A DNA stretch of 64,000 bases. Source: Escherichia coli (GTDB taxonomy: Bacteria; Pseudomonadota; Gammaproteobacteria; Enterobacterales; Enterobacteriaceae). The position numbers were made by a program, and so were the translations under genes. The notes beneath the pieces are model-generated. The model was not told where the DNA came from. It made no database searches and saw nothing but the letters and a program-made list of their open reading frames with translations. The stretch is taken from NCBI RefSeq assembly GCF_024502345.1, contig NZ_JALDNN010000001.1. One strand, 5' to 3'. Below are positions 50,351 through 50,954 of the stretch, piece by piece. How positions within the stretch are numbered: the stretch's first letter is position 1; every line of letters starts with the position of its first letter.

Positions 50351-50727
50351 GAAGCTGACCAGACAGTCGCCGCTTCGTCGTCGTCCTCTTCGGGGGAGAC
50401 GGGCGGAGGGGAGGAAAGTCCGGGCTCCATAGGGCAGGGTGCCAGGTAACGCCTGGGGGGGAAACCCACGACCAGTGCAACAGAGAGCAAACCGCCGATG
50501 GCCCGCGCAAGCGGGATCAGGTAAGGGTGAAAGGGTGCGGTAAGAGCGCACCGCGCGGCTGGTAACAGTCCGTGGCACGGTAAACTCCACCCGGAGCAAG
50601 GCCAAATAGGGGTTCATAAGGTACGGCCCGTACTGAACCCGGGTAGGCTGCTTGAGCCAGTGAGCGATTGCTGGCCTAGATGAATGACTGTCCACGACAG
50701 AACCCGGCTTATCGGTCAGTTTCACCT
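50351..50727 (+). ncRNA. rnpB: RNase P RNA component (M1 RNA), bacterial type A
   Basis: 377-nt sequence starting GAAGCTGACCAGACAGTCGCCGCTTCGTCGTC and containing the universally conserved GGAAAGTCCGGGCTCC region; ends ...CGGTCAGTTTCACCT. Confidence 0.95.
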
Positions 50728-50736
50728 GTTTTACGT

Positions 50737-50768
50737 AAAAACCCGCTTCGGCGGGTTTTTGCTTTTGG
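50737..50768 (+). terminator. rnpB rho-independent terminator
   Basis: aaaaacccgcttcggcgggtttttgcttttgg. Confidence 0.7.
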
Positions 50769-50778
50769 AGGGGCAGAA

Positions 50779-50891
50779 AGATGAATGACTGTCCACGACA
50801 CTATACTCAAAAGAAAGCGGCTTATTGGTCAGTTTCACCTCTTTTAACGAAAACCCGGCAGCGTAAACTGGCGGGTTTTTGCTTTTTGGAG
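50779..50891 (+). repeat. direct repeat of the rnpB 3' end plus a second terminator-like hairpin
   Basis: agatgaatgactgtccacgaca...ggtcagtttcacct...gggtttttgcttttggag repeats 50678-50770 with divergence; a third truncated start agatgaat at 50901. Confidence 0.75.
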
Positions 50892-50954
50892 CATAGTGTA
50901 AGATGAATAAATATCTACGGTATTAATAATAGACTTTGTAAGAAATTATTAAGT

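Follow-up and report, generated by a model that had tools for sequence, protein, structure and literature searches.

Background

The Escherichia coli DNA analysed here, a contiguous stretch of 64,000 nucleotides that we refer to as the window, carries the gene for RNase P RNA and, directly behind it, what appears to be a partial repetition of that gene's own 3' end. This raises the questions of whether the repetition is real, how it relates to the repeats known from E. coli K-12, how far it extends among other strains and species, and what, if anything, such units are likely to do. The following features frame the locus:

50315..50343, plus strand: sigma-70-like promoter of rnpB, GTGACA-17-TATACT (10/12 matches)
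50351..50727, plus strand: rnpB, RNase P RNA (M1 RNA), class A (Rfam RF00010, 318.6 bits, full length)
50955..52142, minus strand: yhaC, 395 aa (NF007262, 853.9 bits)

The rnpB gene is identical to that of K-12 MG1655 (377/377 nt), and its RNA, as placed by the Rfam match, starts at 50351, 8 nt past the end of the promoter-like site; upstream lies garK, which ends at 50318. Downstream, yhaC is convergent with rnpB, and the repeat array fills the 227-bp gap between both genes. At 50730, three positions beyond the mature 3' end of rnpB, a T stands in the window (CACCTGTTTTACG) and an A in K-12 (CACCTGATTTACG), both variants being common among strains; the stretch around this position is presumably the RNase E cleavage site of the rnpB precursor.

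Beyond the array the base composition changes, with AT-rich yhaC/yhaB DNA starting directly past the last repeat remnant. This yhaC/yhaB segment (window 51000-52700, including yhaC itself) has a GC content of 0.28-0.36 as against ~0.53-0.56 for garK and rnpB. Only fragments of it are left in B2-type strains (loci L006 and L010), and Escherichia whittamii and related lineages (L015, L019 and L023) are without it, the array there adjoining the tdcR-side sequence; the segment looks like a small acquired islet. An IS5-family transposase ORF of 322 aa (52727-53695, minus strand; NF033579, 357 bits) lies between the yhaB-like ORF (52164-52655) and tdcR (54025-54369), a position at which K-12 has no annotated element.

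A diverged tandem copy of the rnpB 3' end

An earlier note on this DNA had proposed that the last ~50 nt of rnpB, together with the terminator behind them (50678-50770), are repeated with divergence at 50779-50891, and that a third copy begins at 50901. Alignment of these segments and comparison with 500 dinucleotide shuffles led us to the following anatomy:

50678..50778, plus strand: unit 1 (R-type, 101 bp), comprising the final 50 nt of rnpB, then the T1 hairpin, then a spacer that ends in GGAGGGGCAGAA
50779..50900, plus strand: unit 2 (X-type, 122 bp), a pseudo-3' end of rnpB, the predicted terminator T2 and a spacer
50800..50811, plus strand: 12-nt insertion ACTATACTCAAA in unit 2, the hallmark of X-type units
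50901..50922, plus strand: terminal stub, the decayed start of a further unit (AGATGAATAAATATCTACGGTA), 73% like the unit start

The two units match in 89 of 96 aligned columns, with an alignment score of 56.5 against 5.7 +/- 2.3 (maximum 16.5) in the shuffles (z = 21.8), so that the tandem duplication of the gene's 3' end with its terminator is borne out. The proposed coordinates were right to within a few bases, the better unit boundaries being 50778/50779 and 50900/50901. The initial 22 nt are identical between the units, as is the 17-nt sequence GGCGGGTTTTTGCTTTT. Unit 2 is distinguished by the insertion, by two changes 3' of it that turn the P4 strand GAACCCGG into GAAAGCGG, and by a longer hairpin loop. 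In the Rfam class A consensus there are 12 extra positions (model ~324-336) between CCAC and GACAGAA where the E. coli rnpB is shorter; this site (window 50696-50700) is also that of the 12-nt insertion in X units, which could be a coincidence or a hint at the origin of the insertion.

The third copy stands on a different footing. Taken alone the stub is borderline (local score 12.5 against a shuffle mean of 7.6 and maximum of 13). However, it is exactly in phase with the units, and the arrays of K-12, O157:H7 and most other E. coli alleles finish with this stub too, even in strains with no extra unit at all; it can be regarded as the fixed end of the array adjoining yhaC. Tandem Repeats Finder reported nothing on the window because two diverged copies with indels score below its limit, which is why pairwise alignment and a shuffle test were used instead. 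A search of the 64-kb window that tolerated up to 3 mismatches found no other copy of the rnpB 3' end.

Hairpins followed by T-runs on both strands

Folding bears out the further proposal that each full unit ends in a hairpin followed by a T-run:

50737..50766, readable on both strands: T1, hairpin AAAAACCCGC-TTCG-GCGGGTTTTT (50737-50760) with the T-run TTTTTGCTTTT through 50766
50850..50887, readable on both strands: T2 (predicted), hairpin AAAACCCGGCAG-CGTAAA-CTGGCGGGTTTT (50850-50879) with the T-run TTTTTGCTTTTT to 50887

On the plus strand the T1 hairpin has a folding energy of -19.4 kcal/mol (z -3.8) and that of T2 (50850-50879), despite one internal mismatch, -19.9 kcal/mol (z -3.4). An A-tract 5' of T1 provides a hairpin with a T-run on the minus strand too (-13.9 kcal/mol, z -3.3), and on that strand T2 reads as a hairpin (-17.0 kcal/mol, z -3.5) followed by TTTTCGTT, ~75 nt beyond the yhaC stop. 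Written as RNA, T1 is CCCGC-UUCG-GCGGG followed by UUUUUGCUUUU, and T2 is CCCGGCAG-CGUAAA-CUGGCGGG followed by UUUUUGCUUUUU; by folding and by reading, both are GC-rich stem-loops running directly into a U-run, the form expected of an intrinsic terminator. A consensus terminator scan flagged neither, probably because it extended the stems through A:T pairs, leaving too few T's.

Matches of the terminator to the Rfam rnk leader (26 bits against a gathering score of 55) and RsmY (20 bits against 57) families were obtained at a permissive threshold and are at chance level; we rejected both. When the whole unit is folded the z-score is only -2.2 and is driven by the terminator, no covariation points to a unit-specific structure, and the A-rich segment AAAAGAAAG is single-stranded in the predicted fold.

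T1 is an accepted terminator: it is the element called the rnpB T1 terminator, which has been used as the terminator part 'rnpBT1' (PMC3643576). The T1 hairpin of the window is identical to that of K-12, and the outer A/U pairs that nest around the core stem, as described for that part, are visible here too, whereas T2 is a different hairpin.

Relationship to the K-12 array and variation among strains

The earlier note had suspected that repeats behind the M1 RNA gene were already known in K-12 and that the finding was hence probably not new. This is right. The MG1655 array is reported by Tandem Repeats Finder as a 113-bp unit present in 3.5 copies with 96% matches, and the rnpB-yhaC gap is 613 bp in MG1655 against 227 bp in the window. 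Its order is the genuine 3' end with T1, two complete extra units, a disrupted third in which the T-run is interrupted by REP/BIME sequence, a remnant, and the stub AGATGAATAAATATCTACGG. We take these to be the repeats that Reed and Altman reportedly described in 1983 in the 3' flank of the K-12 M1 RNA gene, in which they are also said to have noted ORFs.

The window array occupies the same locus and phase as the K-12 repeats, starting from AGATGAAT 50 nt before the mature 3' end. It shares with them the hallmarks of the X unit (the 12-nt insertion and GAAAGCGG), the GGAGG-ATG starts of ORFs, and the terminal stub AGATGAATAAATATCTACGG adjoining the yhaC 3' end. Unit 2 can be aligned base for base with the K-12 units up to the hairpin, including the insertion after CCACGAC and GAAAGCGG replacing GAACCCGG. 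The differences lie in number, length and interruption. There is one extra unit here as against three in K-12; it is 122 bp rather than 113 bp long because its hairpin has a long loop (CCCGGCAG-CGTAAA-CTGGCGGG) and not the UUCG tetraloop of K-12; and the REP/BIME insertion of the K-12 array is missing from the window. The spacings of 101 and 122 bp with ~2.2 copies, as against the 113-bp period and 3.5 copies of K-12, constitute an allelic difference, given that copy number ranges from 0 to 8 across strains. At four loci (K-12, L003, L004 and L012) the REP/BIME is inserted precisely in the T-run of the last extra unit (junction GGCGGGTTT/CAGATTGTTGAG...; in K-12, locus L001, about 2190-2400), and it destroys the U-tract of that unit.

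We compared K-12 and the window with eleven further E. coli loci, and the expectation that number and spacing of the units vary by strain proved correct, with 0-8 extra units and gaps from 106 to >700 bp. The observed rnpB-yhaC gaps are 106 bp (no extra unit), 227 (window), 390, ~507, 613 (K-12) and 714 bp. No extra unit is present in NRZ96052a and in the B2-type strains DE17 and clone D i14; O157:H7 and CS6L have one with a tetraloop hairpin, and the window and strain C4 (NZ_CP010121) one with a long-loop hairpin; three are found in K-12 and four in O104:H4 2009EL-2071, and further loci combine REP with one extra unit or two. When a 47-nt probe that recognises only extra units was used, 3893 of 5426 complete E. 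coli genomes were matched, leaving 28% without one; the 8521 copies found, all chromosomal, are distributed at 1-8 per positive genome (median 2). With unit 2 plus the stub as query, 463 E. coli genomes match over at least 80% of its length, 232 of them with at least 99% identity. The window allele is therefore a minority form, yet a common enough variant, and the array behaves as a large-unit variable-number tandem repeat (VNTR).

Some individual strains deserve mention. In Z1323CEC0001 (L007, 1305-1506) the genuine 101-bp unit is followed in tandem by a second, perfect copy of itself, which lacks the 12-nt insertion. The duplication is recent, and the process is therefore still active. Among O104:H4 strains, 2011C-3493 has 2 extra units as against 4 in the related 2009EL-2071, and in the latter (L008, 1916-2896) an IS621 element of the IS110 family is inserted in a REP element inside the rnpB array.

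Homologous units in other genera

An exact-pattern search of one genome per species recovered X-type units after rnpB in 16 contigs. The carriers include Escherichia whittamii, two other Escherichia lineages, two Citrobacter, three Enterobacter-labelled isolates, Cedecea, Buttiauxella, Yokenella, two further Enterobacteriaceae and Mixta of the Erwiniaceae. In all, the units follow rnpB in at least eight other genera of Enterobacteriaceae and Erwiniaceae. Two further contigs, labelled Chryseobacterium and Microvirga, look like enterobacterial contamination. A scan of metagenomes, in which the insertion sequence was left unconstrained, added six more loci.

At all these non-E. coli and metagenomic loci the array opens with the genuine 3' end (ACAGAACCCGGCTTA), and the later units all have a 12-13-nt insertion at the same site. 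The P4 strand beside the insertion is not invariant: GAAAGCGG, GAACGCGG and even the genuine GAACCCGG are encountered, which suggests mosaic units that arose by gene conversion. One extra unit on the metagenome contig Ga0099826_10220905 (L033, 179-290) has the 12-nt insertion together with the genuine P4 strand GAACCCGG, and is an apparent gene-conversion mosaic of the genuine and extra unit types.

With its long loop, the unit 2 hairpin is similar to the terminator behind rnpB in E. whittamii and lineages related to it. Unit 2 therefore looks, from these sequence comparisons, like an old paralogue type, characterized by the 12-nt insertion and the long-loop hairpin and common to other Escherichia species and genera, and not like a recent copy of T1. 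Among unit tails drawn from 12 E. coli loci and 16 loci of other species, all 47 distinct ones that reach the T-run have a hairpin (-14 to -33 kcal/mol) with the T-run directly after it. The stem sequences vary between genera and even within one array (e.g. L021 and L026). Decayed units also exist, namely unit 3 of K-12 and the truncated last units of five loci (L014, L015, L017, L019 and L023). At the Citrobacter sp. Awk 4 locus (L018, ~5880-6130) a ~190-bp insertion with a long palindrome (GCTTCGGCTAACACCGTTAACTTAAGCC ... GGCTTAAG...) separates two of the pseudo-3' ends behind rnpB, and resembles a miniature inverted-repeat element.

A proposed array of bidirectional terminators

The interpretation that we favour, and hold with moderate confidence, is that the array is a variable series of tandem bidirectional intrinsic terminators between rnpB and yhaC, generated by duplication and unequal recombination and serving as a dispensable back-up. 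An old duplication would have copied the last ~50 nt of rnpB together with the intrinsic terminator; the X-type copies would then be dead as RNase P sequence, having acquired the 12-nt insertion and a damaged P4 strand, with the GC hairpin and T-run being kept. Copies would be gained or lost by unequal homologous recombination or slippage between units; the window has one extra unit and the constant decayed stub. Each unit would act as a Rho-independent terminator in both directions. On the plus strand T1 would end most rnpB transcripts and T2 would catch those that read through; yhaC transcripts, on the minus strand, would end at T2 or, failing that, at T1. The array would in this manner keep transcription of rnpB, an RNA gene transcribed at a very high level, apart from that of the convergent yhaC.

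A terminator function is the best-supported reading in that hairpin and T-run have been kept despite turnover of the sequence. T2 is predicted to terminate transcription, and the redundancy may be useful rather than tolerated. Counting against the terminator reading, some units are without the T-run or part of the hairpin (e.g. K-12 unit 3 with its REP/BIME). As extra units are lacking from 28% of the E. coli genomes, back-up termination has to be dispensable, and with so many strains lacking extra units any benefit must be small.

Similar arrangements are known elsewhere. Highly expressed stable-RNA operons are followed by tandem fail-safe terminators, as in rrnB T1-T2, and here likewise at least two predicted intrinsic terminators stand in series after a strongly transcribed non-coding RNA gene. 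Unlike rrnB T1-T2, the series stems from duplication of the gene's own 3' end with its terminator, and its copy number varies by strain. Bidirectional intrinsic terminators between convergent genes were reportedly described by Ju and colleagues in 2019; the present array resembles them in its A-tract and T-tract flanks, in its position between convergent genes and in the predicted U-run on both strands. It differs in that the minus-strand U-runs are shorter (UUUUUACG, UUUUCGUU).

Published K-12 transcript data bear on this interpretation in two ways. Against it, the curated K-12 Term-seq tables contain only the mature rnpB 3' end at 3270216, with no 3' ends at the repeat terminators (PMC7815308); rapid processing and multi-mapping of reads in the repeats could hide ends there. 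In direct RNA-seq of K-12, ~2100 (2111) rnpB-strand reads fall in the 800 nt before position 3269111 inside antisense yhaC (3269111-3269911, minus strand) and 34 past it, the RNA ending there in a region of partial, modest Rho dependence (Rho score 2.35; PMC7815308 supplement 2). Some transcription therefore gets past the array. This makes extra terminators plausible and also means that they would be leaky. The ~2100 reads past three terminators point either to a leaky array or to an undetected promoter inside it.

Neutral turnover and other interpretations

A serious rival, which we regard as possible though doubtful, is that the extra units are a neutral minisatellite: functionless by-products of duplication and unequal crossing-over, with the look of a terminator being kept by gene conversion with the selected rnpB 3' end and T1. 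Several of the above observations fit neutrality well, including the range of 0-8 copies with 28% of genomes devoid of extra units, and the difference in copy number between closely related O104:H4 strains. The mosaic units, in which the P4 strand may be GAAAGCGG, GAACGCGG or GAACCCGG with the insertion always present, can likewise be accommodated, as can the decayed units of K-12 and the five truncated arrays. Moreover, the hairpins within one array are usually like that species' own T1. Two observations are harder to reconcile with it. X units that share the 12-nt insertion have lasted in several genera belonging to two families, a long time for neutral intergenic DNA under bacterial deletion bias; and in the window and at L021, L026 and L013 the X hairpin differs from T1 and still forms a good hairpin with a T-run, so that conversion alone is not enough. 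We rank it below the terminator array in probability.

The remaining readings, which invoke an effect of the RNA, small peptides or the scar of an integrative element, are much less likely than either of these two. The first of them, which we consider improbable, is that the pseudo-3' ends act in read-through transcripts. They might serve as decoys by pairing with the 5' strands of rnpB (P1/P2), or they might offer repeated entry sites to RNase E, by which over-long precursors would be marked for decay and the output of M1 RNA tuned. The P2 and P1 3' strands are indeed almost unchanged in X units, J2/4 and P4 are consistently altered across genera in ways expected to inactivate the ribozyme, and the A-rich AAAAGAAAG is predicted to be single-stranded. 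Furthermore, the array ends in a pseudo-3' end with no terminator at the five loci with truncated last units, which suggests that the pseudo-3' end is retained in its own right. On the other side, gene conversion with the real gene would by itself keep P1/P2 conserved, the changes in P4 vary from unit to unit, strains with zero extra units are common, and neither covariation nor the whole-unit z-score of only -2.2, driven by the terminator, points to a structure specific to the unit.

The ORFs noted in the K-12 repeats raise the prospect that the units encode small basic peptides, which we think very unlikely. The relevant feature in the window is:

50781-50906: unit 2 ORF, 41 aa, with GGAGGGG 7-9 nt upstream of the ATG

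E. coli units combine such an ORF with a strong Shine-Dalgarno-like GGAGG, and in K-12 the successive 38-aa ORFs overlap as ATGA, fitting the 113-bp period. However, the frame is not conserved, since the units of Enterobacter, Cedecea and their relatives stop after 9 codons; the Shine-Dalgarno-like sequence is confined to Escherichia; and the C-terminal half is wholly different between alleles, also within E. coli. The ORF also runs through its own terminator hairpin and T-run to a stop codon beyond them, so that a terminated transcript would be without a stop. A promoter scan and inspection by eye found no promoter-like site inside the units, which counts against peptides as well, and the unit ORF has no entry among those listed in one small-ORF ribosome-profiling supplement, a point of little weight. 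As neither the frame nor the start signals are kept among homologous units, we rejected the small-protein reading as a conserved function.

An element that integrates in the 3' end of an RNA gene supplies the gene with a new end, and the original end, now displaced, remains as a direct repeat. Williams is said to have described in 2002 displaced 3'-end copies of this kind at the attachment sites that integrative elements use within tRNA and tmRNA genes. The X units might by analogy be displaced old rnpB 3' ends, the scar of an element of which the AT-rich yhaBC would be the island remains, being likewise inactive direct repeats of exactly the 3'-terminal segment of a stable-RNA gene, with the AT-rich DNA starting past the stub and missing in E. 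whittamii and related clades. Unlike those attachment sites, the array has no integrase nearby (the only mobile gene being the IS5-family transposase at 52727-53695) and no island between its copies, which are multiple and directly head-to-tail; the window has no further rnpB 3'-end copy at up to 3 mismatches; and B2-type strains without yhaBC retain a yhaC 3' fragment, which indicates deletion and not an empty attachment site. With no integrase nearby, no distal repeat in the window and no element bounded by genuine and displaced 3' ends, we rejected this reading too as very unlikely.

Implications

For the window itself these results are of little importance: the visible repeat is the known rnpB 3'-flank array in its allele with one extra unit, a strain-specific version of a copy-number-variable repeat already known in K-12, real but ordinary. 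As a VNTR with 0-8 extra copies across 5426 complete genomes, the array can confuse short-read assembly and mapping around an essential RNA gene, and multi-mapping reads affect 3'-end and expression data there.

The presence of homologous units in several other genera is the one point that may be modestly new. It allows for a bolder reading, which we consider unlikely: that the extra unit is an ancient cassette of pseudo-3' end, 12-13-nt insertion and terminator, retained for a specific role in RNase P RNA biogenesis. Such a cassette may have stayed behind rnpB from a time before Escherichia, Citrobacter, Enterobacter, Buttiauxella, Cedecea, Yokenella and Mixta split. Were this true, its role would go beyond simple back-up termination to the disposal of read-through precursors or to the control of M1 RNA levels, through decoy pairing or RNase E entry. 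The units of the other genera provide a natural series in which to ask whether terminator redundancy behind a highly expressed RNA gene is under selection or just tolerated.
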